Shown: positions 12,074 to 27,531 of the stretch, one piece after another
Position numbering within the stretch: position 1 is the first letter of the stretch
Layout of the letters: every line of letters starts with the position of its first letter
Source of the DNA: an uncultured Methanoregulaceae archaeon
GTDB taxonomy: Archaea > Halobacteriota > Methanomicrobia > Methanomicrobiales > Methanospirillaceae
NCBI GenBank assembly: GCA_963717525.1
Contig: OY970343.1
Coordinates: forward strand, 1,184,001 to 1,248,000
Reading direction: 5' to 3'
Length of the DNA stretch: 64,000 nucleotides
Translations under genes and position numbers: made by a program
Notes under the pieces: model-generated
What the model was told of the DNA's origin: nothing
Databases searched by the model: none
The model's input: the letters and a program-made list of their open reading frames with translations, nothing else

Positions 12074-13307
12074 ATGACCGCAATTGTTCTCCTCTTCAGT
12101 ACCGGTACTTACCCAGGAAAGGTTGTCGTGGCTGGATCAGGCACTCAGATACCATTACCAGCAAACCAGCGGTGAACCCTCAGGCACTCCGGGAGTCGGT
12201 ACCCCGGCGTGTGCGACGATTTTCCTTACCGGTGACGCTCTCTATAGCCTCAACGAAGCTGAATCCCTGAATATATGGTCGTCCGTGCTGTCGTTGCAAC
12301 AGGTCAGGCTCATCTGTGACCGCGATGCTCTGGAGCACCGGGGCATCACCCTTGTCCCGTTAAAAGAACGGTTTCCGGATCAGGTGACCGATCTGCCGGA
12401 CGAGGGCAAAAAAGGCGCCCCGTCTTTCTGGGCCGCCGTTCTCTCCGCGGCCCGGGATCAGTTCCCGCCGACCCCCCTGGGGATCGGGTGGTTGCAGATC
12501 TCATCGCCGTACATGTTTCCCGCTGCGGGATATGGGCTCCTTTGCCTTTCCGCCGCGCTCGATCTCCACTGCGGCGTAAGCCTGTATGCATACCTTGACG
12601 GATGCCATGCATGTCATACCGGCCAGAATCCCGGAGATGCAGAAAATATCGGTGATGCCCTTGAAAGGTTAGCGAAACGTGCGGCAGAAAAAAACCTGCC
12701 CTGCACGGTCATGGTCAGCAGGTATTCTGCCGGCGCACGCGGCTACCAGTCATGGGATGATGGGATGGGGACAATCGGGTCGTCTTGTATCGTCAGGCCT
12801 GCTCATATTAAAGATATGGATGTCATGATCCGCCACATCGGAAACCTCCCTGTCCTGCTCTCAGAGAATGCCGGTATTGTGCACGGCGCCCATTCCCGGG
12901 ATCCGGTTCACGATGCCCCTCATCCCCCGGCAGTTATTGTCCTGATCACCCACAGCCCGTACAGCACCGGGCATGCCTATGGAGGGATCGCGCTTGCCGT
13001 TGCCTGTGCCCACCAGGGGATCCGGACCCAGGTCATCTTCCTTGAAGATGGGATCTATACCCTGACCGGGGAGCACCGGGCGCCCGAGGGGTCATGCTCA
13101 GGACCATTACCCGAGCTCGTCACCCATCTTTCAAAGAGCAAGAACCTGGAGTTCTCTGCACTCTCCCCCTCCTTCCACACGCGCGGGGTTACAAAAAACG
13201 GGACACTTGCGGCGGTTAAAGAGATCGGGTTTCCCGAGCTTGGTACTATCCTGTTTTCGCCACCCCGTGATGCGGGGAGCGGTCTCCGGCGGATCCTGTT
13301 CTTCTGA
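12074..13307 (+). CDS. three-domain DsrE/F/H (TusBCD)-like protein, paralog 1 (apparent +1 frameshift near 12104)
   Basis: Collinear with 23588..24832 (FLTGDALYSL, SPYM, YLDG, ARGY, FLEDGIY, RILFF). ATG 12074 with one base removed gives MTAIVLLFSTVLTQERLSW, which aligns ungapped to the paralog start MTAHFFLIRDILIPERLDW. Confidence 0.8.
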
Positions 13308-13372
13308 CCCTGACGGTACCGGCCCCGTCTGCGGGAAAACCTATTCAAGCAACCCCGGAAAAAGAGACTGCT

Positions 13373-14311
13373 ATGACAGATTCTGCTCTCCGGCTCCGTG
13401 AGGCTGACCGGGCGGAGATCACGGTGCTGGTCGATAATTATATCGACCTCTTTGTTCCTTCGCAAAAATCTATTGACGTGAGACCACCGTTTGCACTGGA
13501 CCGGCCCCTTCTTGCCGAGCATGGCCTTTCCTGTTATGTCAGAGTGTTCGCCAACGGAAAGGAGCACGCCATCCTGATGGATACCGGCCTCTCGTGCGGG
13601 TGCATGCTCCACAATGCCCGTCAGCTCAGGATCAATCCGGGGCAGGCCGGGACGATCGTTCTGAGTCACGGTCATTTCGATCATGTCGGGGGTCTTTCCT
13701 CACTGCTCCAGACTGCAGGGCACCAGATTCCGCTTGTCACCCACCCGGATGCGTTCCTGCGCCGCCGGCTCATGAGCCCGGGGAAAGAACCTGTCGATCT
13801 CCCGCAGCTGGATGCCGTCTCCTTAAAACAGGATGGGGCGGACATCCTTATGCGCCCCGGCCCCTCGCTTCTCGCGTCCGGTCACCTGCTCGTGACCGGT
13901 GAGATAGAACGGACTGTCCCCTTTGAGAAAGGATTTCCCGGAATGGAAGCATGGGCCGGAGATCAATGGGTCCCTGATCAAATCTTAGATGACCAGAGTC
14001 TGGTGATCAATATCAAAGGAAAGGGTCTCGTCGTGATCAGCGGGTGTGCCCATGCAGGGATTATCAACACGATCCGCTATGCCCAGAAGATTACGGGTGT
14101 CGATCACGTATATGCGGTGCTGGGCGGGTTTCACCTGACCGGGCCGCTCTTTGTACCGGTCGTTGGACCAACCATCGATGCAATGAAACGGATAAATCCG
14201 GATTATATTATACCCATGCACTGCACCGGCTGGGACGCGATCAACCGGTTCTTTTCGGCATTGCCCAAAGCCTGTATCCTGAATACCGTGGGGACAACCT
14301 ATAGTTTTTAA
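13373..14311 (+). CDS. metallo-beta-lactamase fold protein (COG1237 / MJ0301-like)
   Basis: AEHGLS, SHGHFDH, SGCAHAG, GGFHL and PMHCTG motifs. Confidence 0.88.
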   Translation: MTDSALRLREADRAEITVLVDNYIDLFVPSQKSIDVRPPFALDRPLLAEHGLSCYVRVFANGKEHAILMDTGLSCGCMLHNARQLRINPGQAGTIVLSHGHFDHVGGLSSLLQTAGHQIPLVTHPDAFLRRRLMSPGKEPVDLPQLDAVSLKQDGADILMRPGPSLLASGHLLVTGEIERTVPFEKGFPGMEAWAGDQWVPDQILDDQSLVINIKGKGLVVISGCAHAGIINTIRYAQKITGVDHVYAVLGGFHLTGPLFVPVVGPTIDAMKRINPDYIIPMHCTGWDAINRFFSALPKACILNTVGTTYSF

Positions 14312-14584
14312 TTATTTTAAAAATTAACTTGCGGCAAATCAACACAGGCAGAATACATTTGATATTCCGATATCGGAGGCCAATTCGCGCGTTGGCAGGA
14401 TTTTGACCCTGTCCGGCTGGTTAGATCGGCCCGGAATTATTTTGTTGAAAAAATATTGGTGAGGAATAAAAGACGAGGGCCAGAAAAACAGAATCGCGTT
14501 CTCACCGGATGTCAATATCTGAAGAAAAACTACGTCGTTAGTTAAGCATTTGAAAAATTAAGAATGCTCGGTTAAAATATTCTG

Positions 14585-14618
14585 GTTTACCATCTGTAAA
14601 CATAACAATGTTTAATTA
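14585..14618 (+). promoter_or_regulatory. putative fwd promoter with overlapping inverted repeats
   Basis: GTTTAC-N5-GTAAAC (14585-14601) and TAAACAT-N4-ATGTTTA (14597-14614) overlap a TATA-like TTTAATTA (14611-14618) in an AT-rich region upstream of fwdG. Confidence 0.45.
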
Positions 14619-14686
14619 CTGTTTCAGGGAAACTCTTGAATTAAGGAATTTGATTCCCAGTAATTGTTTTGTGTGTGTGATAAATT

Positions 14687-14950
14687 ATGGCGTTTTCAGT
14701 ACATGTCAACGTGAACCGGTGCACCGGCTGCGGGAATTGTGTTACCGCCTGTCCGGTAAATGCACTGGAACTGTACACACGTGATCCTGTAACCAATGAG
14801 AAGATCTACCAAGTTCAGGATGGCGTGTCGGTAAGTCTTGATGTCAAGACTGAGTTGTGTGCAGGGTGCGGCGTATGTGTCGAAGCATGCCCGTATGATG
14901 TAATACAGTTATCCGGCAAAGGTTCTGGAGAGTCAGCGGTCAACGTCTGA
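14687..14950 (+). CDS. fwdG: formylmethanofuran dehydrogenase subunit G (2x[4Fe-4S] ferredoxin-like)
   Basis: Two CxxCxxCxxxCP motifs; first gene of the fwd cluster. Confidence 0.85.
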   Translation: MAFSVHVNVNRCTGCGNCVTACPVNALELYTRDPVTNEKIYQVQDGVSVSLDVKTELCAGCGVCVEACPYDVIQLSGKGSGESAVNV

Positions 14951-14977
14951 CCGCAACCATCCTTGTGAGATGATATC

Positions 14978-15388
14978 ATGGTGGAGAAAAAGATCACCCT
15001 TAATATTATTACCTGCCGCACGATCCAGCAGGGCGTCGGCATGGAGGCAGGCAAGACATCCCAGAAATATTTTGATGCCTGCACCATCATCCAGTTGCAC
15101 CCCGAGGATTTCAAGAGACTGGGGGCATGGAAGAACACGAATGTCCGCGTTACGAGCAGTGTCGGGAGCGTCATTTTAAAGGCTGTCGAGACCCGCGAGG
15201 ACCTTGTCCCGGGTCTTGCCCACATCCCGATGGGGCCCTGGGCAAACCATATTGTCCCGGCATACACGTTCTCAACCGGTGAGCCCTGTTTCAAGGGATT
15301 CCCGGCGGATATAGAGGTTGCCGCAAACGCACGGATCATGGGAGCAATCGAAATTCTGCAGGACGCCTGCGGACTTATCAGGAAGTGA
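14978..15388 (+). CDS. fwdD: formylmethanofuran dehydrogenase subunit D
   Basis: RTIQQG, IPMGPWAN and TGEPCFKG molybdopterin dinucleotide-binding domain. Confidence 0.92.
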   Translation: MVEKKITLNIITCRTIQQGVGMEAGKTSQKYFDACTIIQLHPEDFKRLGAWKNTNVRVTSSVGSVILKAVETREDLVPGLAHIPMGPWANHIVPAYTFSTGEPCFKGFPADIEVAANARIMGAIEILQDACGLIRK

Positions 15389-15394
15389 TGACAG

Positions 15395-16720
15395 ATGCCA
15401 AAAGAAGTAACTGATGTTATCTGCCCGTTCTGTGGTACGCTGTGCGACGATGTCCGCATTACTGTCTCCGATGACAATAAGACGATCCTCGGAGTCAAGA
15501 ACGCATGTGCCATCGGCGCCGAGAAGTTCAACCACCAGCGGCTCCCGGGCCGTGTCAAGCGCCCGCGGATGCGCCAGGCCGACGGGACCTACAAGGAGAT
15601 CACCTACGATGAGGCGATTGACTGGACCGCAAAGATGCTCGTCAAGTCACGAAAGACCCTGATGTACGGCTGGGCATCCACCAGCTGCCAGGCCATGAGC
15701 ATCGGCCACGAAATTGCAGAAAAGACCGGTTGCATTGTCGACAACTGTGCAACCGTCTGCCACGGCTCTTCCCTGATCGCCATAGAGGATGTCGGTGTCC
15801 CGAGCTGTACGCTTGGTGAAGTCAAGAACCGTGCTGACCGCGTTATCTTCTGGGGCTGCAACCCGGCACACGCCCACCCCCGCCACATGTCACGGTACTC
15901 GATCTTCCCGCGTGGTTTCTTCACTGTCAAGGGCCACAAGGGCCGGAAGATCTACTGTGTCGACTGCCGGTACACCGATACTGCAAAGTGCGCTGATGAG
16001 TTTATCCAGGTACAGCAGGGATACGACTATGAACTGCTCAACGCGTTCCGCACAGCAGCACGCGGCGAAGCACTCCCCGACACGGTTGGCGGTGTCCCCA
16101 AAGAGAAGATCATCGAGATCGTTGAAGACTTAAAGACCGCACGCTTCGGTATCATCTTCTTCGGTATGGGCCTCACCCATACGATGGGCAGGAACCACAA
16201 TATCGATATCGCCATCAACCTGACCCGTGACATGAACGACTTCACGAAATTTGCGATCATGGCCATGAGGGGCCACTGGAACGTTACCGGTTCCGGCCAG
16301 GTACTTGGCTGGCAATACGGGTTCCCGTACGCTGTTGACCTCTCGAGGAGAGACCAGGCCCGCCACCAGACCGGCGAGACAACCTCGGTCGACCTCCTCA
16401 ACCGCAACGAAGTCGAAGCCTGTTTTTATATTGCAACCGACCCAGGTGCACACTTCCCGGTCGATGCAATGATCAGCAGTTCCAAGAAACCGACCGTCAC
16501 CATCGATCCGCACATCAACTGCACGACCGAGATCTCAGATATTCACATCCCGGTCGCCATGGTCGGTGTCGAAGTCGGCGGATGTGCCTACCGTATGGAC
16601 AACGTCCCTATCGAGACCCGCAAAGTAGTGGACCCGCCGGAGGGTGTGCTGACTGACGAGGAACTCCTGACCAGGATCAACCAGCGCGTTGATGAACTCC
16701 TTGCCAAGGGAGGTGCGTAA
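15395..16720 (+). CDS. fwdB: formylmethanofuran dehydrogenase subunit B (Mo/W-pterin; Cys ligand)
   Basis: CPFCGTLCDD, TVCHGSS, WGCNPAHAHPRH and MRGHWNV. Confidence 0.96.
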   Translation: MPKEVTDVICPFCGTLCDDVRITVSDDNKTILGVKNACAIGAEKFNHQRLPGRVKRPRMRQADGTYKEITYDEAIDWTAKMLVKSRKTLMYGWASTSCQAMSIGHEIAEKTGCIVDNCATVCHGSSLIAIEDVGVPSCTLGEVKNRADRVIFWGCNPAHAHPRHMSRYSIFPRGFFTVKGHKGRKIYCVDCRYTDTAKCADEFIQVQQGYDYELLNAFRTAARGEALPDTVGGVPKEKIIEIVEDLKTARFGIIFFGMGLTHTMGRNHNIDIAINLTRDMNDFTKFAIMAMRGHWNVTGSGQVLGWQYGFPYAVDLSRRDQARHQTGETTSVDLLNRNEVEACFYIATDPGAHFPVDAMISSSKKPTVTIDPHINCTTEISDIHIPVAMVGVEVGGCAYRMDNVPIETRKVVDPPEGVLTDEELLTRINQRVDELLAKGGA

Positions 16721-18427
16721 ATGTCAGAATATATCATCAAGAACGGACACGTCTTTGACCCGGTCCAAGGAATCAAAGGAGACAAGAAAGATATCGCCGT
16801 CAAGGACGGCAAGATTGTTGACACGGTCGGGTCCTCGGCAAAGACCATCGATGCCAAAGGCAAGACTGTCATGGCCGGGGCACTGGATATCCATGCCCAC
16901 GTGGCAGGCCCCAAGGTAAACGCCGGCCGCTGGTATCGTCCCGAAGACAAACACTTCGACTCCCATAAGAAGCCCGGTATCACCCGTATCGAAGGCGGCA
17001 AGTCCATCCCGACGGTCTTTAAAACCGGGTACGCATACGCACGGATGGGGTTCACCTTTGTCATGGAAGCGGCTATGCCCCCCATGTACGCACGCCACGT
17101 GCACGAGGAGATTCATGACACGCCGATCATCGATGAGGCTGCGCTCCCATTGTTCGGGAACAACTGGTTTATCTTGGAGTACCTCAAAAACCAGGAGATC
17201 GAGAACACAGCCGCATACATTGCCTGGATCCTCCGCCAGACCAAAGGATACGGTGTCAAGTGCGTCAATCCCGGCGGCACTGAAGCCTGGGCATGGGGAC
17301 TCAATTGCCTGACTATCCACGACCCGGTGCCCTACTTCGACATCACACCCTCAGAGATCATCACCGGCCTGATGAAGGCCAACGAGTACCTTGGTCTCCC
17401 GCATTCGTTCCATGTCCACCAGAACGATCTGGGCAACCCCGGTAACTACACGGTGACGCTCGACACACTCAAGCTTGCCGAGGGTATCAAGCCGAAGAAC
17501 AACTTCGGCCGCGAACAGGTCATGCACTCGACCCACCTCCAGTTCCACTCGTATGGCGGCGACAGTTTCGCGAACATCGATTCAAAGGCAAAAGAGGTCA
17601 TGGACTACGTCAACAAGAACAAGAACATCACCATGGACACGGGCAATGTTACCCTTGACGAAACCACGACCATGACCGCTGATGGGCCGTTCGAGCACCA
17701 CCTCCATGCGCTCAACCATCTCAAGTGGTTCAACGTGGACGTCGAACTGGAGACCGGCGCTGGTGTTGTGCCATATATCTACAGCCCGAACGTTTCGGTT
17801 AATGCAATCCAGTGGGCCATCGGGCTTGAACTTGCCCTCTTTGCGAAGGACCCGATGCGCTGCTTTATTACCACTGACCACCCGAACGCAGGCCCATTCA
17901 CCCGTTACCCCCGTGTCTATTCCTGGCTGATGAGCAAAAAAGTCCGTGATGAACGCCTGAACACGTTCAAGAACGCTGACAAGGTCATTGGTGCGACATA
18001 CCTCGCCGAGATCGACCGCGAAATCACGCTCTACGAGCTGGCCCAGATGACCCGCGCCGGCCCGGCGAAAGCTCTTGGCCTTGGAAAAGATTACGGGGGC
18101 CTCGCCCCCGGCATGAATGCAGATATTGCGATCTACAACATCGACCCGGACAAGTTCCCCTCCACCGGTGCCGATATCGAGAAAGCGTTTGCAAACGTGG
18201 CGTACCTCTTCAAGGATGGGAAGATCTGTGTTGAAGAAGGGAAGGTCGTTGACATGGGCAACAAGCACACCTTCTGGGTGGATGCCAAGGTCAAGGAGAA
18301 CAAGCAGGTCATGCATGATATCAGGGAAAAGTTCCTCAAATACTACAGTCTCAACGAGAACAACTACCCCGTTCCCGAGAGTTATGCACCGCACCAGCAC
18401 ATTCTGACCGTGGATGCGGTTCAGTGA
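16721..18427 (+). CDS. fwdA: formylmethanofuran dehydrogenase subunit A
   Basis: DIHAHVAGPKVN, KCVNPGG and TTDHPNAGPF amidohydrolase motifs. Confidence 0.97.
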   Translation: MSEYIIKNGHVFDPVQGIKGDKKDIAVKDGKIVDTVGSSAKTIDAKGKTVMAGALDIHAHVAGPKVNAGRWYRPEDKHFDSHKKPGITRIEGGKSIPTVFKTGYAYARMGFTFVMEAAMPPMYARHVHEEIHDTPIIDEAALPLFGNNWFILEYLKNQEIENTAAYIAWILRQTKGYGVKCVNPGGTEAWAWGLNCLTIHDPVPYFDITPSEIITGLMKANEYLGLPHSFHVHQNDLGNPGNYTVTLDTLKLAEGIKPKNNFGREQVMHSTHLQFHSYGGDSFANIDSKAKEVMDYVNKNKNITMDTGNVTLDETTTMTADGPFEHHLHALNHLKWFNVDVELETGAGVVPYIYSPNVSVNAIQWAIGLELALFAKDPMRCFITTDHPNAGPFTRYPRVYSWLMSKKVRDERLNTFKNADKVIGATYLAEIDREITLYELAQMTRAGPAKALGLGKDYGGLAPGMNADIAIYNIDPDKFPSTGADIEKAFANVAYLFKDGKICVEEGKVVDMGNKHTFWVDAKVKENKQVMHDIREKFLKYYSLNENNYPVPESYAPHQHILTVDAVQ

Positions 18428-18438
18428 GGTGACAAGGA

Positions 18439-19239
18439 ATGGACACGATTACACTGACTGTAAAGAAAGTGCCGGAGATCTATCTTGAATGCGAGAGTCT
18501 GAACCCCGACACCTTTGCCGGTAAGACCGCTGATCAGATCGCAAAACTTTCGGCATACCAGGGCAAGGAAATGTCCACCCTCGGTGAATATTTCACCATT
18601 GCGGGCAACGCCGGGGCAACAGCAGCCGAGACGAAGATCATCGTAAACGGTGACTGCTCCAAGATGAAGTACATCGGCGCGAAGATGACCGCCGGTGAGA
18701 TGGTGGTCAACTCCGACTGCGATATGTACACCGGCAGCTGGATGAGCGGAGGCAAGCTCCTTGTCAAGGGGAACGTCCACTCGTTCTGCGGCCTTGCCCT
18801 GAAAGGCGGGGAGTTTACCATCGAAGGCAATGCCGGCAACTACCTCGGCGCCGCATACCGTGGCGACTGGAGAGGGATGTCAGGCGGCGTCCTCCGCGTG
18901 AAGGGTAATGCCGGCTCCGATGTCGCAACCTTCATGACCGGCGGCGAGATGATCATCGAAGGCAATGTCGATATCCACCTTGGCACCCATATGGAGGGTG
19001 GCAAGATCATCCTCAAGGGCAACGCGAACCGCCGTGTTGGTGGCCAGCTGGTCAAGGGCGAGATCTATGTGTTCGGGAAAATCAATGTGATGATGCCCGG
19101 CTATAAGAAAACCGGCGAGGTCGATCTCGAAGTTGACGGTACCAAAGCCAGATTTACCGAATATATCGGAGACCTCGGTGAGCGCCACCCCAAGAGGAAA
19201 GGCGAGACCGTTTACGGCAAGCTCTATATGAAAAAATAA
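18439..19239 (+). CDS. fwdC: formylmethanofuran dehydrogenase subunit C
   Basis: GXGXG beta-helix repeats and AYRGDWRGMSGG. Confidence 0.96.
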   Translation: MDTITLTVKKVPEIYLECESLNPDTFAGKTADQIAKLSAYQGKEMSTLGEYFTIAGNAGATAAETKIIVNGDCSKMKYIGAKMTAGEMVVNSDCDMYTGSWMSGGKLLVKGNVHSFCGLALKGGEFTIEGNAGNYLGAAYRGDWRGMSGGVLRVKGNAGSDVATFMTGGEMIIEGNVDIHLGTHMEGGKIILKGNANRRVGGQLVKGEIYVFGKINVMMPGYKKTGEVDLEVDGTKARFTEYIGDLGERHPKRKGETVYGKLYMKK

Positions 19240-19294
19240 TTTTTTTCATTTTTAAAAACGTTATCCGGTCGATTGGATGGGATCTTTTGATCCC
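19231..19294 (+). terminator. T-rich terminator after fwdC and short hairpin between convergent genes
   Basis: TAATTTTTTTCATTTTT directly after the stop; GGGATC-TTTT-GATCCC hairpin near 19279. Confidence 0.5.
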
Positions 19295-19376
19295 CTGTGA
19301 AGGGGCCTGCTTTCCTCATGGGGGAGGAGGTGCTGCTCGTCAAACCAGCGGTCATAACCGTGTTGCAGCGCACTCG

Positions 19377-19775
19377 TCAAACGGATTCCTGCCGGTCATG
19401 AACTGCACCGCCACCTCCCTGCCGGACATCCATCTTCTGCCCGATTGATGTTTCAATCCCTTTGAGCGTCGCAATCCCTGCCGGGCCTTCCCGGTAGTAA
19501 AAGAGGAGGAGATGGAAAAAATCAGCGGTGAGATCCGCAAACTCTTTCCGGTACCGGACCTCGACGCTGGTATCCCCCACAAAGCCCTTGATGGAGATGA
19601 ACCGTTCCTTCTCAAACGAGAAGTAGGGGTGCCGGAGGTGTGAGAACGATCGGACAGTCCCAAAGCCCTCAAGAAAGTCCAGGAATTCCGGGGTCAGGGG
19701 TTCATCGATCAGGAATTCTTTCATCAGCGAGCCGTCCACGCAGACCTTCGATTGCACCGACCTAAGGATCCGCAC
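19377..19775 (-). CDS. hypothetical protein, translationally coupled to the cysteine desulfurase
   Basis: GTG start overlaps the desulfurase 3' end by 14 nt; protein-like composition, single Cys (KVCVDGS). Confidence 0.7.
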   Translation of the reverse strand: MRILRSVQSKVCVDGSLMKEFLIDEPLTPEFLDFLEGFGTVRSFSHLRHPYFSFEKERFISIKGFVGDTSVEVRYRKEFADLTADFFHLLLFYYREGPAGIATLKGIETSIGQKMDVRQGGGGAVHDRQESV

Positions 19776-20940
19776 TGTCTGCCACCTCGCAGATCGCGGT
19801 GATCGCCTTCCTGCATTCGTCCATCGTGGTAAAGTAGCCAGGGCTCACCCGGATGCAGCCGGTTCCATTATCGATACGCTCGTGGACAAGCGGTGCGCAG
19901 TGGAGGCCGGTCCGGGTGATGATCCTATAGGCCCGCGATAGAATATATCCGGCGTCATCGGGAGGGATCCCGGCAATGTTGAAAGATATGACCGGAAGAT
20001 CGGGATCCGAGGAGTACAACCTGATGTTCCGGTGCCCGGCAAGTTCACGGGTGAAGAGGTGCGTGAGCGTGCGATCATGCGCACCGATAGCATCGATACC
20101 GGTCCTGTTGATAAAGCGAAGGCCGGCATACAGGGAGGCAATACCGGGATAGTTGGGAGTGCCGGCCTCGAAACGCTCAGGCATCCCGGCCGGGTGAGAA
20201 AGCGTCCGCGAATCGGTACCGGTCCCCCCTTCGCGGGTAATGGCCACCCGAGTGGGGTCCCGTATCCAGAAGCCGCCGGTCCCCGGCATGCCGTAGAGTG
20301 CCTTGTGGCCGGTGAAGACAAAGGCGTCCAGGGAAACCTGCGAAAGATCCAGCAGGACGAGGCCTGCAGTCTGCGATCCGTCGACAACAAAGAAAATATC
20401 GTTTACGGCAAGGTATTCCCCGACTGTTCGGATATCCTGTACCGTACCGAGCACATTGCTGCCATGCGTCATAACCACCAGCCGGGTTTCCGGCCGCACG
20501 GCTTTTTTTATGCTGCATGGGTCGACCCTGCCATCGGGGTCTGAAGGCACGACCGTGTACGACAGGCAACCGTCACGTTCGAGAGCATGGAGCGGGCGGA
20601 GCACGGAATTGTGTTCAAGATCGGTCGTGACTACATGGAACAGCGCATCATTGCGACGAGCAAAACCATGTATCAGGGTATTGAGCGAATCCGTCGCATT
20701 CGCGGTAAAGACCCAGCGATCCGGATGTTCTGCAGAGAAGAACTCTGCGAGGAGCTCCCGTGTCTCCGCCGGATAATCAGGGGCTGAAAAAAACGCCGAA
20801 CGCCCGGCCTCTGCAAACGGCTGGCTGAGGCATCGGGTCACCTCAGCAATCACCTCCGGGGGCTTGGGCCAGCTGGTCGCGGCATTATTGAGGTATATAA
20901 ACGGCGTTTTGGCCTGTTGATGCGGATCGGGGAGGGGCAT
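19762..20940 (-). CDS. cysteine desulfurase (PLP aminotransferase class V, SufS/group II-like)
   Basis: YLNNAATS, EHNSV, DGSQTAG, FTGHK (PLP Lys) and RTGLHCAP (catalytic Cys). Confidence 0.9.
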   Translation of the reverse strand: MPLPDPHQQAKTPFIYLNNAATSWPKPPEVIAEVTRCLSQPFAEAGRSAFFSAPDYPAETRELLAEFFSAEHPDRWVFTANATDSLNTLIHGFARRNDALFHVVTTDLEHNSVLRPLHALERDGCLSYTVVPSDPDGRVDPCSIKKAVRPETRLVVMTHGSNVLGTVQDIRTVGEYLAVNDIFFVVDGSQTAGLVLLDLSQVSLDAFVFTGHKALYGMPGTGGFWIRDPTRVAITREGGTGTDSRTLSHPAGMPERFEAGTPNYPGIASLYAGLRFINRTGIDAIGAHDRTLTHLFTRELAGHRNIRLYSSDPDLPVISFNIAGIPPDDAGYILSRAYRIITRTGLHCAPLVHERIDNGTGCIRVSPGYFTTMDECRKAITAICEVADSADP

Positions 20941-21105
20941 GAGCGTACTACATACTTTTTACCGGCGTGCCTTAATGGCTTTGTCGATAATTTTTTAATC
21001 GGAACGCCGCATCCCGGCCCGGGTGACGTCAAAAAAAGATCAAATACAATATGCTAATAAAGCGTGAATTCCTATATGGAGATACACTATTTCGAGGCTA
21101 TTCCT

Positions 21106-21366
21106 ATGGACACGTACAGGTGCATGATGTGTGGTCATATCTATGACCCGGCAAAAGGCGAGCCTAAGGCATTCCAGACCATCCTGTGTAATTTTGAGCA
21201 CATGGATGATTACCAGTGCAAACCCGGTGCAGAGATGTCAGTCAAAGCAGGAACCTCCTTCTCCGCTCTTCCGGGTGACTGGAAGTGCCCGACCTGCGGG
21301 CACCCCAAGTCATATTACCAGAAGGTTGTCCCTGACACCCTTGCATCCATGCGAACGGTCAGCTGA
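21106..21366 (+). CDS. rubredoxin with internal insertion
   Basis: YRCMMCGHIYDP...LPGDWKCPTCG. Confidence 0.85.
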   Translation: MDTYRCMMCGHIYDPAKGEPKAFQTILCNFEHMDDYQCKPGAEMSVKAGTSFSALPGDWKCPTCGHPKSYYQKVVPDTLASMRTVS

Positions 21367-21523
21367 CTAAAAAGTACCGTCCGCATCCTTTTTTACAAAA
21401 TTTCATTAATTTTTTCCCATTTGTTTACAATAAATGATCCCCGGATAGCCGGGCCTGATCCACCGTTGCCGGTGCCAGGACGGGGATTATCTGATCATGA
21501 CTGTCGGGGTCTGAGTTCAGGAA

Positions 21524-21751
21524 TTACTGGTATCCAGCTACTTCGATGCGGGGGATCTTCCCCTCAATGGTCTCCTGGTACAGCCGCTCAGGGAATGTCG
21601 CATGGAAAAGGGCACTGTACGCCTCATAAGGCACCGGCGCATAATATCTCCGCACTCCTCCCGGTAAAACCACAACCAGTCTCTTGTTCTCGATATCGTA
21701 CCCCAGTTCGCGGATCCCATTGGAAACAAATCTGTCCCAGACTATACTCAT
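21524..21751 (-). CDS. KTSC domain protein
   Basis: SNGIRELGYD...L.V...GG...Y..VP...Y..L pattern typical of KTSC. Confidence 0.7.
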   Translation of the reverse strand: MSIVWDRFVSNGIRELGYDIENKRLVVVLPGGVRRYYAPVPYEAYSALFHATFPERLYQETIEGKIPRIEVAGYQ

Positions 21752-21861
21752 TGCACACAACCTCCATGCACAACCGGATTTGGTTGTAACTGCCGACCGT
21801 TATGCCTCCGGGACGATAAATGTTTGCCGGGAGCTGCAATTGAAAAAAGAGACCGAAGAGG

Positions 21862-22737
21862 CTATCCTTCAATCATTTTCACAATGGTCTTTTTGAACTC
21901 ATCAAACTCGAGATCGTCAAGCTGCTCGGGGAGCATCGCACCGCTCGAAGCCTGCCGGTAGATCCAGTAGATGATACGGTCCACCACCCGTAAGACATCC
22001 TCATGAGACTTGACCGTGACTAAGTGCCGCCCGATTTTCGGGTGCCTGCCCCGGCGTCCCCCGACCGTGATCCGGTACTCCGGGTCATCGGCAGAGATGA
22101 GTTTGAACGGGCAGGGGAGGATGCAGAAGCCACACTCCATGCAGAGTTCCTTGTGGAGGACGATGACGCCATTGTCGACCTCGATGGCCTTCTCCCTGCA
22201 GTAATGGGTGCAGGTTCCGCAGCCGGTGCAGAGGCCGGGATCCCGGATCGGGCGCCGGGTACCAGTGATGCCGATCTCGTTGAGGCGTTCGCTCTCGCAA
22301 CCGTTAGGACAGGATGAAATGGCAATACGAACCTTGACAGGCAGTTCCCTGCCGAAAAACTTCTTGTCGATCTCCTGGGCGAGCCCGACACTGTCGATGA
22401 TGCCGAACTTGCAGTGCCGGTTCCCCATGCATGCGGTCACATTGACGACTTCCTCGCGTTCTGCTCCTAGAGGTGTGCCGTTCTTTTCCAGGTCCCCGAC
22501 GAGCTCTTCGAGCTGGCCCGGGTCCACATGAGGCAACTCCACGGTCTGCCGGGTCGTGAGATGGAGGTCTTTTACCCCGTAACGACTCGCAATCTCACCG
22601 AGCCCCTGCATCTGTGCCGGGGTGATCATCCCGGCCGGCATGCGGAGGCGGACGATAACAAAGTTGGGATCGCATTCCGTGATGATCCCACCCCGGGTAT
22701 AGAGTTCCTGATTGATCTGATATTTTTTGAATACCAT
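21862..22737 (-). CDS. siroheme sulfite/nitrite reductase-like protein (Dsr-LP / AsrC-like) with 2x[4Fe-4S] insert
   Basis: HLTTRQ, CMGNRHC (CX5C), SCPNGC (CX3C), CTGCGTCTHYC, CMECGFCILPC and GGRRGRHP. Confidence 0.9.
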   Translation of the reverse strand: MVFKKYQINQELYTRGGIITECDPNFVIVRLRMPAGMITPAQMQGLGEIASRYGVKDLHLTTRQTVELPHVDPGQLEELVGDLEKNGTPLGAEREEVVNVTACMGNRHCKFGIIDSVGLAQEIDKKFFGRELPVKVRIAISSCPNGCESERLNEIGITGTRRPIRDPGLCTGCGTCTHYCREKAIEVDNGVIVLHKELCMECGFCILPCPFKLISADDPEYRITVGGRRGRHPKIGRHLVTVKSHEDVLRVVDRIIYWIYRQASSGAMLPEQLDDLEFDEFKKTIVKMIEG

Positions 22738-22837
22738 AACTGACTATTCCTTCGATGCAGCAACGGATAGAGGTTACGAATGTACCCTAACTGGTAAAGT
22801 ACAAATGATTATTAGACTCCGTCGCGAAGTATGTACC

Positions 22838-23410
22838 ATGGTGAAGCATTCCGAATACATGGAGGCATTTTTTGGCGTGGAGCTGAACCAGAAGTTCGAA
22901 GATATGATAAACGAACTCAAGGATACTGAGGACAACTTAAAAGAGCTCTCCCTTGAGATTGCGAAACTGGAGGGAACCAGGGATACTGCAGAATTCAGCG
23001 AATCCATCAAGGAATGCAGGGCCGTGGCGTACGAGAATGCGCAGCAGATAAAGGATGTGCGCACGTTTCTGGATTTCTACCTCAAATCAGACAAGACCTC
23101 AACTCATATCATTCTCGAACGGGATGCTTACATGAAAATATACCAGATCTTCAAATGGGACGGGTCAGATGTCCGGGATCTCAAGCGCTGGATTGCGGAT
23201 CTCAAGGAGATCTGCGATAAGATCGGGTTAAACATGCGGGATCTCATCAACTTCAAGAAACTGACGTCGCAGCCGGTGCCCCCGGAACTGGTAAAGTTCC
23301 CCGTATATGCTCTCGACCGGCAGGGATACTGCCTGACCGGCCCGGGATTTGATATGGTCCTCCATATCGATGAAGTCCGCGAACAGATGGACAGCAATTC
23401 TCACGAATAA
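22838..23410 (+). CDS. hypothetical protein with N-terminal coiled coil
   Basis: Long ORF with acidic, heptad-like N-terminal half, followed by a T-rich tract. Confidence 0.75.
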   Translation: MVKHSEYMEAFFGVELNQKFEDMINELKDTEDNLKELSLEIAKLEGTRDTAEFSESIKECRAVAYENAQQIKDVRTFLDFYLKSDKTSTHIILERDAYMKIYQIFKWDGSDVRDLKRWIADLKEICDKIGLNMRDLINFKKLTSQPVPPELVKFPVYALDRQGYCLTGPGFDMVLHIDEVREQMDSNSHE

Positions 23411-23587
23411 GATTTTTTTTCTTTGGGACCGGAAGCCGGCATGCCGTCGCCGGTTGTAGTTCTCCATCGTTTTGCCGGTCAGGGTAAGTATTCCCGATTA
23501 AAAGCAGGGATTATCAATAAAAAATCTGTACACCCTGGAGAACATAATAGATAAATAACGTGATCTTCAAATCATCAGTATCCCTGC

Positions 23588-24832
23588 ATGACTGCCCATT
23601 TTTTTCTGATAAGGGACATTCTTATCCCGGAGCGGCTCGACTGGATCGATGAGCTGCTGAAGTTTTATTTTTTAAAACTCAACCCCCAGAGTTTCCGCCA
23701 TACCTCCCATGACCGGGAAGCAGCGTTCACCTTTTTCCTGACCGGTGACGCCCTGTATAGTCTCCAGAACCCGCAGATGGTCGAACTCTGGGAAAGCATA
23801 TTCTCGCTTCCCTCGATAAAAATAGTCTGCGACCAGGAAGAGCTTGCCCTTCGGGGTATCACCGTTGAACACCTGAAAATGAAAAACCCGGATCTGGTGA
23901 TCACCCATAACAGCCTTGCGCTTAACGGGCGGCCGTCCTTCTGGAAAGACGTCATGAAATACGCCCGCCAGCACGAGCAGCCGATCCCGAGCACCATCGG
24001 GTACCTCCACATGGCCTCACCTTACATGCACCGTTCCTCCGGCATCCTCCTCCACTGCCTTGGAGCGGCACTTGAATCCCAAACCTCGTGGGATCTCTAC
24101 TGCTACCTCGACGGGATCCACATCGGACACCAGGGCCAGAACCCGCTCGATATGGAGAATATTGGGGATGGCCTGGAGGATCTTGAGGACCGGGCGGGTA
24201 AACGCGGCCTCCACGGCCAGATCACCGCCAGTGCCACGTGTGCGAGTGCACGGGGGTACTGTACCCGGGAAGAGGGAAAGGAGGGGCTCGTTCCGGCCTG
24301 CACCATCCAGCCAGTGAAGATCCGGGATCTCCACACTATTGCCGCGCAATTCCGGAGCAACCATATCATCCTTGCCGAAAACTGTGCCAGGATCTCCCTG
24401 AGAAAAGAGAATATCCGGCCAACCCTGAGTTTTGATGAGAAATGGAGGGTCCCGCCGGTGACGATCCTTGTCACTCATCACCCGTACGGTTCGGAGTTTG
24501 CCTCGGGCGCGGTTGCCTTTGCCATCGCGTGTGCCGAAAAGGAGATCCAGACCCGCGTCGTCTTCATCGAAGACGGCGTGTATGCTCTTTCCGGCTTACA
24601 CTCATGCGCCAGCCGGCCACAGTGCCTCAACCTGCAGGAGAAGATCGATGCCGTATCCGGAAGCGAGAACCTCCAGTTTTTTGTTTTTGCTCCTTCCCTG
24701 CAGGCAAGGAACATGAGCAAGAACCCGAAACTGACCGGGGTGCTCCCGATCGGTATCTCGGATCTCGGCAACCTCCTCTTCTACCCGCCGACAGGCATCG
24801 TGGCTAATCACCAGAGGATCCTGTTCTTTTGA
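23588..24832 (+). CDS. three-domain DsrE/F/H (TusBCD)-like protein, paralog 2
   Basis: Three tandem DsrE-fold motif sets: FLTGDALYSL...EELALRGI, SPYM...YLDGIH...TCASARG and HPYGSE...FIEDGVY...SLQARN. Confidence 0.82.
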   Translation: MTAHFFLIRDILIPERLDWIDELLKFYFLKLNPQSFRHTSHDREAAFTFFLTGDALYSLQNPQMVELWESIFSLPSIKIVCDQEELALRGITVEHLKMKNPDLVITHNSLALNGRPSFWKDVMKYARQHEQPIPSTIGYLHMASPYMHRSSGILLHCLGAALESQTSWDLYCYLDGIHIGHQGQNPLDMENIGDGLEDLEDRAGKRGLHGQITASATCASARGYCTREEGKEGLVPACTIQPVKIRDLHTIAAQFRSNHIILAENCARISLRKENIRPTLSFDEKWRVPPVTILVTHHPYGSEFASGAVAFAIACAEKEIQTRVVFIEDGVYALSGLHSCASRPQCLNLQEKIDAVSGSENLQFFVFAPSLQARNMSKNPKLTGVLPIGISDLGNLLFYPPTGIVANHQRILFF

Positions 24833-24958
24833 CAGGACTCATTACCTGCGTATTACTCGCGGTATTCCCGTTCCAGCCACACCTGATTCCACTCCCCGGT
24901 GTGCTTGACTCCGGTGATGAGGTGTATGTCGTTCTATACTACACAACTCGGTATTACC

Positions 24959-25708
24959 CTAGATACCTTCTGATGCACTCAGCGCGGCCCCGATTGCACC
25001 CACAATCTGAGGATCGGGCGGTACAAAAACAGGTCTGCCCGTCTCGTTTTCAAGAAGAGTCCGTGCGCAGTTATTCAGTGCAACACCCCCGGCAAAAAAG
25101 ATCTTCCCCGCAGGGGCAACCCGATTCAAGAGGCCTGCGGAACGGCTGATAATCGCTTTATGAACGCCTAAAGCAACCTCATTGCGATCCGCTCCCTGGG
25201 AAATAAGGGAAACCACCTCGGATTCTGCAAACACGGTGCACATGCTGTTGATCTTTTCCGCTTTTTTCGCAGAAAGAGCCGCAGCGGAGAACTCTTCCAG
25301 CGTGAAACCGAGTACGGTCGCCATGACCTCAAGGAATCGCCCGGTGCCTGCGGCACACCGATCATTCATCTCGAATTTACACAGGTTACCTTCACAATCC
25401 AGAGAAATGGCCTTGGTGTCCTGTCCGCCAATGTCAAGGATCGACCCGCAGTCGTTTGAAAAAAAGCGGGAACCCCGGACAAAGGCCGTGATCTCGCTGA
25501 TCACCGGGCAGTCGAGGTGCCCCCTGATCAGGTGACGCCCGTATCCGGTGGCTGTTACCCGGTCATACTCCACGCCCTCAAGGAGATCACGGGCGATCCC
25601 CAGCGGGTTATGGGAGGTTACAGATTTGCGGGAAAGGACAAGCCTGCCGTTTTCAAGCACGGCAAGCTTGATGGTACGCGATCCGATATCAATTCCCGCG
25701 CATCTCAT
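24959..25708 (-). CDS. ATP-dependent reductive activase (HgdC/BcrAD/DCCP-R type ASKHA ATPase)
   Basis: GIDIGSRT, ATGYGR, DIGGQDTK, MNDRCAAGTGRFLE and SMCTVFAESE. Confidence 0.93.
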   Translation of the reverse strand: MRCAGIDIGSRTIKLAVLENGRLVLSRKSVTSHNPLGIARDLLEGVEYDRVTATGYGRHLIRGHLDCPVISEITAFVRGSRFFSNDCGSILDIGGQDTKAISLDCEGNLCKFEMNDRCAAGTGRFLEVMATVLGFTLEEFSAAALSAKKAEKINSMCTVFAESEVVSLISQGADRNEVALGVHKAIISRSAGLLNRVAPAGKIFFAGGVALNNCARTLLENETGRPVFVPPDPQIVGAIGAALSASEGI

Positions 25709-26984
25709 TTCTTCTTCAGGCGCTCGTTAAATGCCTCAATCCGTGTCTTGAGCTGCCCGACATCTTCCTGGCTGTAATCGGTCTCAAGTCGCAGGGTAGG
25801 GATGTGCGATTTTTCCAGTTCCTTCTCCACCGGGCCGCTCTCGATAATATAGGGCTGGCAGAACTGCAGGCTGTAATGGATGACACCATCTGCGTGGAGT
25901 TTTTTTGTCATTTCCTTTACGTAATCAACACGCGAGGGGTTTGGCGTAAAGACTGCACAGTCAACATTGAAATACCGGTCGGTAATGGCATCAAGCAGTT
26001 CTTCCACGGTGTTGCCCTTTACTTCGGTCAGCCACCGTGTGCCCCGTTCTCCCACACAGGACTCCTCGCCCACGATGACGGCATTGCTCGTCTCAACAAG
26101 CATCGGCAGCTTCCAGTTCGGAACGGCCATCGGGCATCCAGATATAATGATACGTGTTGTTCCCTTGGGAGCCACACCCTTATGATCTTTTACCCGCTGC
26201 TCCAGCTCGTCGCAGAGCTTGTTGACCGAATCAGTGAACCGGACAGGATCATCGTGGAAGAAGACCTGGTTGATGAGGAGGGCATCAAGGCCTGAGATCG
26301 GGGCCGGGTCTGCGGCACGGATCGCGGCAAGCCGTATCATCGCCTTCCTCTTTGCATTGACGATATCGATGGCTTTCTTAAGCGATTGGACGGTTATCTT
26401 CTTCCCACTCTCTTTTTCGAGTTTTGCAATGAACTTGCGGTACTCCTCTTTGAGTACCAGCCGGCCTGTCTCGCTCTTTGTCTGCGGGAGATCCATGACG
26501 TAGAGATCCTTTACGAGAGGTCTGAAGATCTCATAGGCCTTTTTCTTGCCATCGCAGGTGTTCTCGCCTACGATCACATCGCACGACTCCACGTAGGGAC
26601 AGAGTTTCCCGAGCTTGAACCCGAACATGGACTTGATGAGTGAACAGGTATTCCTGGGGAGCAGTGCTTCGGCGGCTTCAAAATTCAGCTCGGCACCGGC
26701 GCACAGGCCGACGGCAACACCGTCAACGGCAAGGACGAGTTCCTCCGGGACAAAGACACAGTACGATCCGATCACTTTCCGGCCCTGTGCCTTTGCGTCG
26801 ACGAGTTCCTTGATCCGGAGACCGTGGACCTCGCTCATAACAAAATCGAAGTACTTCATCCCTTCCGGCGGTTCTTCTGGGAAAGGAAGATGTCTGTGTA
26901 TGCTTTTCCCAAAACTGCAAGAAGTGCATCGTGGTTTTTTACATCAATGCCCAGTGATTTCCACATTTCCGTATAATCTGCCAT
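25705..26984 (-). CDS. double-cubane cluster protein (2-hydroxyacyl-CoA dehydratase D/HgdB superfamily); apparent -1 frameshift near 26870
   Basis: ATG 26984 reads MADYTEMWKSLGIDVKNHDALLAVLGKAYTDIFLSQKNR and joins PEGMKYFDFVMSEVHG with one added C. Cys motifs: YCVF, LCAG, TCSL, LCPY, TCDG, SGCP, ESCVG, DCAVF and FCQP. Confidence 0.8.
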
Positions 26985-27009
26985 GGTGTATGACCTGCCT
27001 TTTTTAATG

Positions 27010-27531
27010 TTAGATCTTTTTCACTTCGGCTTTCAGGGTAATTGCATGCTGGATGGTGAACATGCCCATGCAATGTGTGAGAGAATACTCCTTGAGGTCC
27101 GCAAGCTGAGCCTCGGTGACATCGCCCTTGACATCCATGAAGACACGGAATCCATTCACGAGTGGCTGTTTCCCGAGATCGAATTGGGCGGTGTAATCGA
27201 GGTCTGCCTCAACCCGGGTCTTCACATTCGTAAGCGTGATATTTCTCAGGGAGGCTTCGGTAACAAGGGTGCTTGAGAAACAGGCAGCAAACCAAAAGAG
27301 GCCAAACGCCATCGGCCCGGGACGGCTTGCAGGCCCGGCGAAGTTCGGGTGACAGGCTTCCATCGTATAGGTACCGTCCTTTACCTTGACAATCGACCGG
27401 AACTGCGGGCCGCCTTCCTCAAAGAGCCAGTCTCCCTCGATCTTTGCTGTGAATTTTGCATCAACCGGCTTGTTCCGGATCTCCTTTTTGTAATCTACAA
27501 CCTGCTTGGTGTCGATGTTGTTCAGACCCAT
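27010..27531 (-). CDS. OsmC/Ohr-like protein
   Basis: PGP...AACF and HCMG two-Cys pattern; LNNID N-terminus typical of the long OsmC-like subfamily. Confidence 0.8.
   Translation of the reverse strand: MGLNNIDTKQVVDYKKEIRNKPVDAKFTAKIEGDWLFEEGGPQFRSIVKVKDGTYTMEACHPNFAGPASRPGPMAFGLFWFAACFSSTLVTEASLRNITLTNVKTRVEADLDYTAQFDLGKQPLVNGFRVFMDVKGDVTEAQLADLKEYSLTHCMGMFTIQHAITLKAEVKKI

Follow-up and report, generated by a model that had tools for sequence, protein, structure and literature searches.

The fwd operon of a Methanoregula-type genome (G000, 87% complete) lies within a conserved sulfur- and Mo/W-related gene neighbourhood that includes two single-chain DsrH-DsrE-DsrF proteins. Our tentative interpretation, held at a little under even confidence, is that it forms an accessory neighbourhood supporting Fwd and Fdh with sulfur and Mo/W, built round a fused YTD-type relay, and that the window (the whole 64,000-nt stretch of DNA analysed) carries a reduced form of it. 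The neighbourhood bears on how methanogens short of free sulfide supply the Fe-S- and pterin-rich Fwd with sulfur, and on what Dsr-LP IIIb, double-cubane proteins and DsrE proteins of archaea do.

Gene content and linkage to fwd

A sequence-only reading of this DNA had listed a set of sulfur and redox genes around fwd, and every one of them was found in place. The KTSC gene (21524-21760) and orf190 (22838-23410) were absent from that list. The features are as follows.

12074..13307, + strand: fusion 1, DsrH-DsrE-DsrF in a single chain, with both CxxC positions Ser
13373..14311, + strand: MBL-fold hydrolase
14687..14950, + strand: fwdG, 2x[4Fe-4S]
14978..15388, + strand: fwdD
15395..16720, + strand: fwdB, Mo/W-pterin subunit (TIGR03129; best PDB match 7BKB)
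16721..18427, + strand: fwdA, the sole fwdA found in G000
18439..19239, + strand: fwdC
19377..19775, - strand: desulfurase partner, 132 aa, outside any Pfam/NCBIfam family, invariant C12-x-D14-G15
19762..20940, - strand: cysteine desulfurase of SufS type (TIGR01977-like) that retains catalytic Lys213 and Cys348
21064..21366, + strand: rubredoxin with an insert; homologues begin near 21106
21524..21760, - strand: KTSC-domain protein, in 18/29 island loci
21862..22737, - strand: group IIIb Dsr-like protein with a siroheme motif and two Cys motifs of ferredoxin type
22838..23410, + strand: orf190, divergent from dsrLP, for a conserved 190-aa protein outside known families
23588..24832, + strand: fusion 2, single-chain DsrH-DsrE-DsrF, Ser215 at the Cys78 position
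24959..25708, - strand: ASKHA ATPase activase (TIGR00241)
25705..26984, - strand: double-cubane [8Fe-9S] protein, which other assemblies give as 426 aa
27010..27531, - strand: OsmC-like protein with Cys84 and Cys154, in 26/29 island loci

The fwdGDBAC genes were called by TIGR03129/03121/03122 with scores over cut-off. The MBL gene is a patchy recruit; few loci (L001 partially, L039 and L196) have it in the interval from fusion 1 to fwdG. Upstream of fwdG, orf190, osmC, csd, rubredoxin, fusion, yedE and dccp we found no common regulatory motif, only AT-rich promoter-like conservation; a palindrome before fwdG (14585) occurs once in G000 and is not conserved.

The neighbourhood is conserved among relatives, and its genes cluster more than chance would give. 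Fusion genes lie within 15 kb of fwdA in 26 of 38 copies, against about 2.6% expected by chance, a figure drawn from related and hence non-independent genomes. Profile matches to the fusion were obtained in 88/134 genomes of the family and in none of the genomes of three other families of the order (0/39, 0/33 and 0/11), all of which have Fwd. The fusion adjoins fwd in at least five gene orders, being inserted between fwdG and fwdD in two loci (L033, L034) and following fwdC-nitroreductase in other genera. Its recurring neighbours are moeA, modABC/tupABC, fmdE and fdhAB; near fwdA stand the window-type dsrLP in 11/14 copies and double-cubane genes in 12/19. Physical linkage by itself makes genes co-occur. 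Since IscS/IscU, ThiS/MoaD-like proteins and FdhD are encoded elsewhere in G000, the island is accessory.

We did not find this conserved neighbourhood in print in the searched literature, which was mostly outside subscription journals, and to that extent the claim that the system is undescribed stands; it does, however, resemble the known YTD/DsrEFH relay in fused form. The one supplementary file searched in connection with DsrEFH type II contains no Methanoregula or Methanomicrobia names. The supplements of PMC11237513, on archaeal fusions, may list the DsrHEF fusion.

Fusion proteins and the yedE-tusA cassette

Both fusions are true DsrEFH/TusBCD-fold proteins, as the sequence-only reading had proposed: profiles and structure comparison agree, with the domains in the order H-E-F. 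The DsrE profile matched residues 143-254 (E 8e-4) and DsrF residues 296-382 (E 6e-4), the N-terminal domain was assigned to DsrH at 95.9%, and the structure model (pTM 0.90) compared with YchN, DsrE and TusD at Z 14.7-15.2. The two proteins are 38% identical. Aligned with A. vinosum DsrEFH (2HY5) and E. coli TusBCD (2D1P), Cys78 of DsrE falls on fusion column 215, where both window fusions have Ser. Fusion 1 lacks either Cys of the CxxC; fusion 2 retains Cys218, Cys238, D175, H178, H181 and Q184, and with them the D-G-x-H-x-x-H-x-x-Q site.

Fusion 2 is under purifying selection (dN/dS 0.11-0.12, against 0.10 for fwdA), which rules out decay of this gene in the window. For fusion 1 the value is 0.20 (versus L039). 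Its ATG at 12074 is out of frame, with a one-base shift near 12100, and a TTG start at 12084 gives 407 aa; this frame break may be an error or mark a pseudogene. In a relative that is 99% complete (G020), a frameshift interrupts fusion 2, and none of the three Cys is left in the orthologue of fusion 1.

The form present in many relatives is fuller: yedE (as two genes), tusA, the fusion and the gene of a small Cys protein run divergently from the Dsr-like gene, and orf190, for which the atlas search gave no usable match, opens the yedE-tusA-fusion gene run. The yedE pair and tusA stand directly upstream of the fusion in 15/29 island loci (two pairs of duplicates included). In the window they are absent, and 177 bp separates orf190 from fusion 2; no TusA, YedE or DsrC/TusE was found in the 87% complete G000. 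The TusA-family protein of relatives has YeeD as its best NCBIfam match, below cut-off, and the moeA-linked copies listed have lost its first Cys. The small downstream protein has an invariant LTCTNL cysteine; its homology to TusA found no support (no BLAST match; hhalign E 0.13).

Cysteine content tracks the cassette. The Cys78-equivalent and CxxC are intact in all 41 yedE-linked copies, and the CxxC in 11/42 copies that lack yedE as well as tusA. Phylogeny was by FastTree, in which long-branch rows are unsure. Because yedE and tusA sit at the same spot in relatives, a sulfur relay is the best reading for the family. The proposed sulfur mobilisation and delivery system is thus supported at family level, through yedE and tusA in relatives and the ties to fwd and Mo/W genes, and is not supported for this 87% complete genome, which has Ser at Cys78 and in which no TusA, YedE or DsrC was found. 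These natural single-chain DsrEFH proteins, with Cys/Ser variants that follow YedE and TusA presence, offer parts and residues to test.

Desulfurase, Dsr-like and double-cubane proteins

The desulfurase is of class II (SufS-type) by its sequence, scoring 367.5 bits with TIGR01977 (9.5 bits below the cut-off of 377) and having both the class V PLP Lys and the RTGLHCAP (RxGxHCA) Cys. The partner accompanies it in 18/18 loci, mostly away from fwd, and is an uncharacterised protein found across the order; its invariant Cys12 makes it a candidate persulfide acceptor. Fold comparison put a TBP-like structure first (Z 7.2, rmsd 3.1 over 91 residues) without settling the fold; its atlas matches are archaeal clusters bearing no names, and no link was found to the HTH/FeS protein of locus L180. 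The pair resembles SufS-SufE and CsdA-CsdE in having a SufS-type enzyme and a small adjacent partner with one invariant Cys, although the window partner matches no Pfam or NCBIfam family. The two genes are a unit apart from the relay, one that may instead draw its sulfur from cysteine. They also occur beside full yedE-tusA cassettes and therefore do not simply replace them.

The Dsr-like protein has the CX5C/CX3C siroheme motif and two ferredoxin motifs of group III. Equivalents of Arg355, Lys460 and Lys462 are present, and Val98 occupies the Arg423 position, where none of 30 aligned rows has Arg; the full group IIId set of four Arg/Lys is thus lacking in the window protein. The missing second Arg places the protein in subgroup IIIb, and with one sulfite-binding Arg gone sulfite is no more than a candidate substrate; nitrite is reduced by a relative whose pocket is altered (PMC9295563). 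That the Dsr-LPs of methanogens lack an established role is outdated for IIId, which matters under sulfite and thiosulfate (10.1101/2024.03.05.583561), and remains correct for IIIb in the literature examined.

The double-cubane protein scored 459.7 bits with NF040772 (cut-off 350), its gene starting near 26984. We ascribe a 5' frameshift to assembly error, as the 426-aa form occurs on 30 contigs with 383/383 identity over the shared part, and the G000 assembly has gatB and topA broken up as well; the same 426-aa form and identity exclude a pseudogene. The published Cys spacing pattern has no literal match in the protein. Two paralogous double-cubane clades recur beside the fusion. SelD gave no match over cut-off in G000 (87% complete), and a reading as a selenium-utilisation cluster (YedE/YedF/SclA/SelD) was dropped because no SelD was found there; with no SelD, the host counts among the exceptional methanogens pointed out in 10.1101/2022.07.06.499078.

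Proposed role, alternatives and known systems

We infer every substrate and transfer step of the mechanism from the folds, residues, gene order, linkage and selection observed above. In the full form of relatives, the split YedE would import a sulfane-sulfur anion (thiosulfate or polysulfide), the CPxC cysteine of TusA would take the sulfur and transfer it to the Cys215 residue of the fusion, from which it would probably go on to the LTCTNL-cysteine protein. The divergently encoded Dsr-like protein could reduce released sulfite, and Fwd, Fdh and the double-cubane protein would draw on this sulfur to meet their Fe-S and pterin demand. In the reduced form of the window, the importer and TusA are gone and Ser replaces Cys215. 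The window fusions are therefore unlikely to work as persulfide carriers of any known type; they are probably kept as ligand- or metal-binding Fwd accessories through the D-G-x-H-x-x-H site and Cys218/Cys238. Several observations weigh against this explanation: 18/27 yedE cassettes in 20-kb loci are not near fwd, the fusion gave no match in three Fwd-bearing families, G020 has one fusion frameshifted and the other stripped of its Cys, the Dsr-LP lacks an Arg, a cable-bacterial relay gave a null result, and there is no shared regulatory motif.

A bolder possibility, which we consider unlikely, is that the single-chain DsrHEF is a dedicated Mo/W-enzyme maturation system, taking up thio-oxyanions (thiosulfate, thiomolybdate/thiotungstate, and thioarsenate at ars loci) and delivering sulfur or metal to Fwd, with fwd-linked duplicates having repeatedly swapped the persulfide Cys for an Asp/His/His/Cys site. 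If true, this binding site would be a new function for the DsrE fold.

Also on the unlikely side, and next in probability, the genes may shield the low-potential Fwd from redox and oxyanion stress, with OsmC and rubredoxin acting against peroxide, Dsr-LP IIIb against sulfite or nitrite, and the YchN-like CxxC fusion as a thiol/polysulfide buffer instead of a biosynthetic donor. The frequency of osmC (26/29) and rubredoxin (21/29) among island loci, YchN as top structural match of the middle domain (tied with DsrE and TusD) and the dispensability of the system in many lineages are consistent with such a role, which nevertheless leaves the moeA, modABC, tupABC and fmdE neighbours, the YedE importer and the insertion inside the fwd operon unexplained.

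The desulfurase-fusion relay suggested by the sequence-only reading is unlikely in this genome, and we give a poor chance to the version in which the desulfurase loads Cys218 or Cys238, perhaps via the 132-aa partner, for delivery to Fwd or the [8Fe-9S] enzyme. Cys238 occurs in 49/54 copies without yedE and in 0/18 non-fwd yedE cassettes, as if it were a new site in the fwd-linked clade; fusion 2 keeps Cys218, and 17/29 island loci have the desulfurase. Against this, both fusions have Ser at the Cys78-equivalent and fusion 1 lacks both CxxC Cys; the pair lies close to a fusion in only 8/42 copies, and near fwdA in 10/26 copies in the genus and 0/16 in other families. The desulfurase also keeps to its own partner and accompanies full cassettes, and IscS/IscU and FdhD are encoded elsewhere.

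Less probable again is a neighbourhood-based reading as thio-oxyanion handling, in which the cassette imports thiomolybdate/thiotungstate or strips its sulfur to serve MoeA and Fwd, and does likewise with thioarsenates at ars loci, the Asp/His/His/Cys site binding the metal(loid). Only two neighbourhood types occur, with Mo/W genes or with ArsP/Acr3/ArsC/ArsR (8 of the 18 non-fwd yedE loci versus 0/15 fwd-linked loci), and the split dsrE-F-H relatives L183 and L187 likewise have ars-type neighbours. Regardless of Cys state, 127-135 of 135 sequences retain D175, H178, H181 and Q184, and passages of PMC11484787 describe Mo as thiomolybdate in sulfidic habitats. Those passages make no mention of DsrE, TusA or YeeE, however, and the ars-linked genomes are related to one another.

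We regard as improbable that the genes are a co-inherited block of unrelated accessories surrounding a second fwd isoenzyme without any link in function. Over the ThrRS tree the block appears or disappears as a unit (9 changes, of which at least 4 are forced), as linkage alone would explain, and the desulfurase pair, MBL and KTSC genes come and go; yet the fusion stands beside different fwd paralogues, in several orders and also in other families (G037, G052, G059), and in 0/38 copies is it far from fwdA on the same contig. The database label, tRNA 2-thiolation as by E. coli TusBCD, has the fold and JGI names in its favour and is very improbable given the patchy distribution, the lack of any TusA or TusE/DsrC found in G000 and of any tRNA-thiolation gene among recurring neighbours.

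For the accessory sulfur and Mo/W neighbourhood that we favour, the closest known system is YTD / DsrEFH type II (PMC13293266), in which TusA passes sulfur to DsrE Cys67 and a Cys67Ser variant is dead; cable-bacterial TusA and DsrEFH took no sulfur from thiosulfate in vitro (PMC13293266). The relatives share with it yedE, tusA and the DsrE/F/H folds in one run and the conserved Cys78-equivalent, a likeness drawn independently of type II profile scores. They differ in the single H-E-F polypeptide, the split YedE, the lack of a detected DsrC, a methanogen host without DsrAB and the tie to fwd and Mo/W genes; the window further lacks YedE, TusA and the catalytic Cys. DsrEFH type I (A. vinosum, 2HY5) and E. 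coli TusBCD (2D1P) match the fold of all three subunits, whereas our proteins are fused, carry CxxC and a family-specific D-G-x-H-x-x-H-x-x-Q-x-P, and have no TusE/DsrC.

Among the other components, the Dsr-LP shares siroheme-[4Fe-4S] and two extra cluster motifs with the M. maripaludis IIId sulfite reductase, but is of subgroup IIIb and lacks the second Arg. The C. hydrogenoformans double-cubane protein (6ENO/7YYL) aligns at E 3e-124 with seven Cys and an adjacent activase, the difference being a window host without detected SelD (87% complete genome). YeeE-YeeD (TsuA-TsuB), which release sulfite and sulfide from thiosulfate (PMC11073785), resemble the PF04143 transporter beside a TusA-family protein in relatives, where, unlike in that system, two half-size transporter genes are followed by the DsrHEF fusion, an arrangement of relatives and not of the window.

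Gene content of the window and fold of the fused protein

ORF and family scans recovered every gene named in the sequence-only reading and added a gene for a KTSC protein as well as orf190, a conserved ORF of 190 aa. The features on which the analysis turns are the following:

12074–13307, + strand: fusion 1, a single-chain DsrH-DsrE-DsrF protein
14585–14601: palindrome GTTTAC-N5-GTAAAC, upstream of fwdG
19377–20940: cysteine desulfurase and its 132-aa partner
22838–23410: orf190
23588–24832, + strand: fusion 2, the second single-chain protein

The genome (G000) is a single 2.29-Mb contig, 87% complete and indel-prone, with gatB (~33300 of the window) and topA (~30300) split by frameshifts. 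The 5' frameshift in the double-cubane gene (~26860) is an assembly error, since a 426-aa form found on 30 contigs is identical at 383/383 positions of the shared part; fusion 1 carries a one-base shift right behind its ATG (~12100). The window's fwdABD operon is the only one found in G000. The palindrome occurs once in this genome, and a search for its conservation in relatives found none.

In an 82-sequence profile of the fusion, the middle third matches A. vinosum DsrE and the last third DsrF; the N-domain, searched as a profile, gave archaeal DsrH proteins at 95.9%. The structure model (pLDDT 86.9, pTM 0.90) matched TusD, YchN, DsrE, DsrF, DsrH, and TusC, with Z of 14.7–15.2 for residues 134–264 against YchN, DsrE, and TusD. 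Together, these matches identify one chain in H-E-F order. Across a 401-genome sample of the phylum, the fused form was found only in the window's order, and other families gave single-domain or split genes. The profile matched 88 of 134 genomes in the window's family (two by single-domain matches only), 3/8 and 2/25 in two other families, and none in three more (0/11, 0/39, and 0/33). Distant fused homologues are labelled Lokiarchaeota and Bathyarchaeota.

Linkage of the fusion to fwd

We examined 38 fusion copies, taken from 44 rows after dropping the two of G000 and four split-gene fragments. In 26 of these, fwdA lay within 15 kb (chance ~2.6%); the remaining 12 were on contigs without an fwdA match, and none was farther than 15 kb from fwdA on a shared contig. 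Proximity to fwdA was also seen for the window-type gene of the Dsr-like protein (dsrLP; 11/14 copies, versus 10/58 for its commoner paralogue), for double-cubane genes (12/19), and for the desulfurase (10/26 within the genus, 0/16 outside it). In gene maps the fusion adjoins different fwd paralogues in at least five arrangements. In some it lies inside the island, upstream of fwdG, or between fwdG and fwdD; in others it follows fwdC-nitroreductase or is divergent from moeA-moeA-fwd. Genes recurring around it include modABC, tupABC, MOT1, fmdE, and fdhAB.

Among 29 loci with orf190 and the fusion (two pairs being duplicates, and some loci cut by 20-kb edges), we found dsrLP in 27, osmC in 26, fwdC in 24, rubredoxin, activase, and double-cubane genes in 21 each, the desulfurase in 17, tusA in 16, and yedE in 15. 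Comparison with relatives shows the proposed neighbourhood to be real, and richer than one genome reveals. On the genus ThrRS tree the block is scattered, with nine changes, at least four of them forced, and clustering no higher than in shuffles. This scatter shows block-wise gain or loss and is not evidence of function, and assembly gaps likewise drop linked genes together.

Several further genes were observed. One clade of fwd paralogues, spanning genera, has a SagB-type nitroreductase behind fwdC (locus L013:685–1440 and many fwd operons). An AA-kinase-family gene, which presumably resembles molybdenum storage protein, adjoins tupA/modA and small conserved ORFs in four loci (L022:1779–2588, L082, L198, and L199). 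A 58-aa Cys-rich protein ending in GCQLGCFK, with no family match, is encoded upstream of moeA and divergent from tusA-fusion (L018:8844–9020 and homologues), and also at G000:C1:2164017–2164193.

Cysteine states and separate sulfur routes

A. vinosum DsrE Cys78 aligns with fusion column 215. Among 135 fusion sequences, the C215/C218 pair is intact in all 41 yedE-linked copies, 8/12 tusA-only copies, 11/42 copies with neither gene, and 36/40 proteins without context. At these columns the window's proteins read Ser/Ser (fusion 1) and Ser/Cys (fusion 2), and searches of the 87%-complete G000 found no TusA, YedE, or DsrC. The window carries a reduced version of the cassette that relatives have in full. 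The relay originally proposed, from the desulfurase through the fusions to Fwd and/or the [8Fe-9S] double-cubane enzyme, is therefore unlikely to operate in this genome. In the sequence tree, fusion 2 branches from among intact yedE-linked copies on a long stem. Its decay was set aside, given a dN/dS of 0.11–0.12, similar to that of fwdA (0.10), and the retention of D175, H178, H181, Q184, R222, and G223 in 127–135 of the 135 sequences. C238 marks the fwd-linked clade (49/54 non-yedE copies, 0/18 non-fwd yedE cassettes). From these sequence patterns, we read fusion 2 as probably retained for a changed function.

The desulfurase and its partner are a unit of their own. In 18 loci from six families, picked from 42 copies and mostly distant from fwd, the partner was always directly downstream. 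C12-x-D14-G15 is shared by all 48 of the partner sequences aligned; a fold search with the partner's model (pLDDT 89) gave no clear match. This two-gene unit is order-wide and often followed by a SAM methyltransferase, which in L132 apparently shares one ORF with the partner; in L116, L117, L121, L124, and L125 the unit lies near another Dsr-LP. Elsewhere in G000 are housekeeping routes: an IscS-like gene, IscU, and a ThiS/MoaD-like gene near 160–162 kb, outside the island, FdhD with a second ThiS/MoaD-like gene near 111–112 kb, and moeA at 772 and 807 kb. Bacterial double-cubane proteins are reported almost always to go with SelD (10.1101/2022.07.06.499078), which was not found in the 87%-complete G000. 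Three loci (L011, L014, and L016) hold two adjacent double-cubane paralogues (~38% identical) with a C-GCAxxG-C-C protein between them.

The window Dsr-LP has Val where Arg423 is expected, which places it in subgroup IIIb of the scheme in PMC3448663. A group IIId Dsr-LP of M. maripaludis is reported to support both growth with sulfite and fitness in the presence of thiosulfate (10.1101/2024.03.05.583561), and an Fsr II with an altered pocket to reduce nitrite (PMC9295563).

The full cassette and its possible roles

In relatives, the full cassette places yedE1-yedE2-tusA between orf190 and the fusion, in a run divergent from dsrLP; the yedE1-yedE2-tusA-fusion order is the YTD arrangement. Usually next after the fusion is a 75–82-aa protein with an invariant LTCTNL Cys. 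This protein (L003:11262–11507 and 20 homologues, all with DF..LTCTNLMI.LK) has no NCBIfam match and is a candidate acceptor replacing DsrC.

Several observations speak against a role in Fwd alone. No fwd lies near 18 of the 27 yedE cassettes found in 20-kb loci, Fwd is also made by three families in whose genomes no fusion was found, and in the genome G020 fusion 2 is broken and fusion 1 Cys-free; the fused system is thus accessory. A rival, less likely reading is that the cassette handles thio-oxyanions (thiomolybdate, thiotungstate, or thioarsenate). In its favour, the neighbourhoods split into those with Mo/W genes and those with arsenic genes, ars genes occurring in 8/18 non-fwd yedE loci versus 0/15 fwd-linked loci; thiomolybdate is reported from sulfidic habitats (PMC11484787). 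ArsP/Acr3/ArsC/ArsR clusters, which also carry DGC, DUF2703, and MtrA-like genes, often border both yedE-fusion cassettes (L089, L092, L093, L096–L098, L101, L103, and L104) and the split dsrE-F-H genes of L183 and L187.

TusA of cable bacteria is described as persulfidating DsrE type II at Cys67, the Cys67Ser variant being inactive (PMC13293266), and E. coli-type YeeE/YeeD as importing thiosulfate with release of sulfite and sulfide (PMC11073785). By analogy with these systems and with the group IIId Dsr-LP, the full cassette may serve to import and relay sulfur, with a sink for sulfite. In M. maripaludis, tusA/tusD and yedE transcripts reportedly respond to selenium (PMC11097638).

In the literature searched, neither a single-chain DsrHEF nor its association with fwd is described, and the available part of an archaeal fusion survey (PMC11237513) does not mention the single-chain form. 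The constituent parts are members of known families; among described systems, YTD/DsrEFH type II comes closest to the fused cassette.
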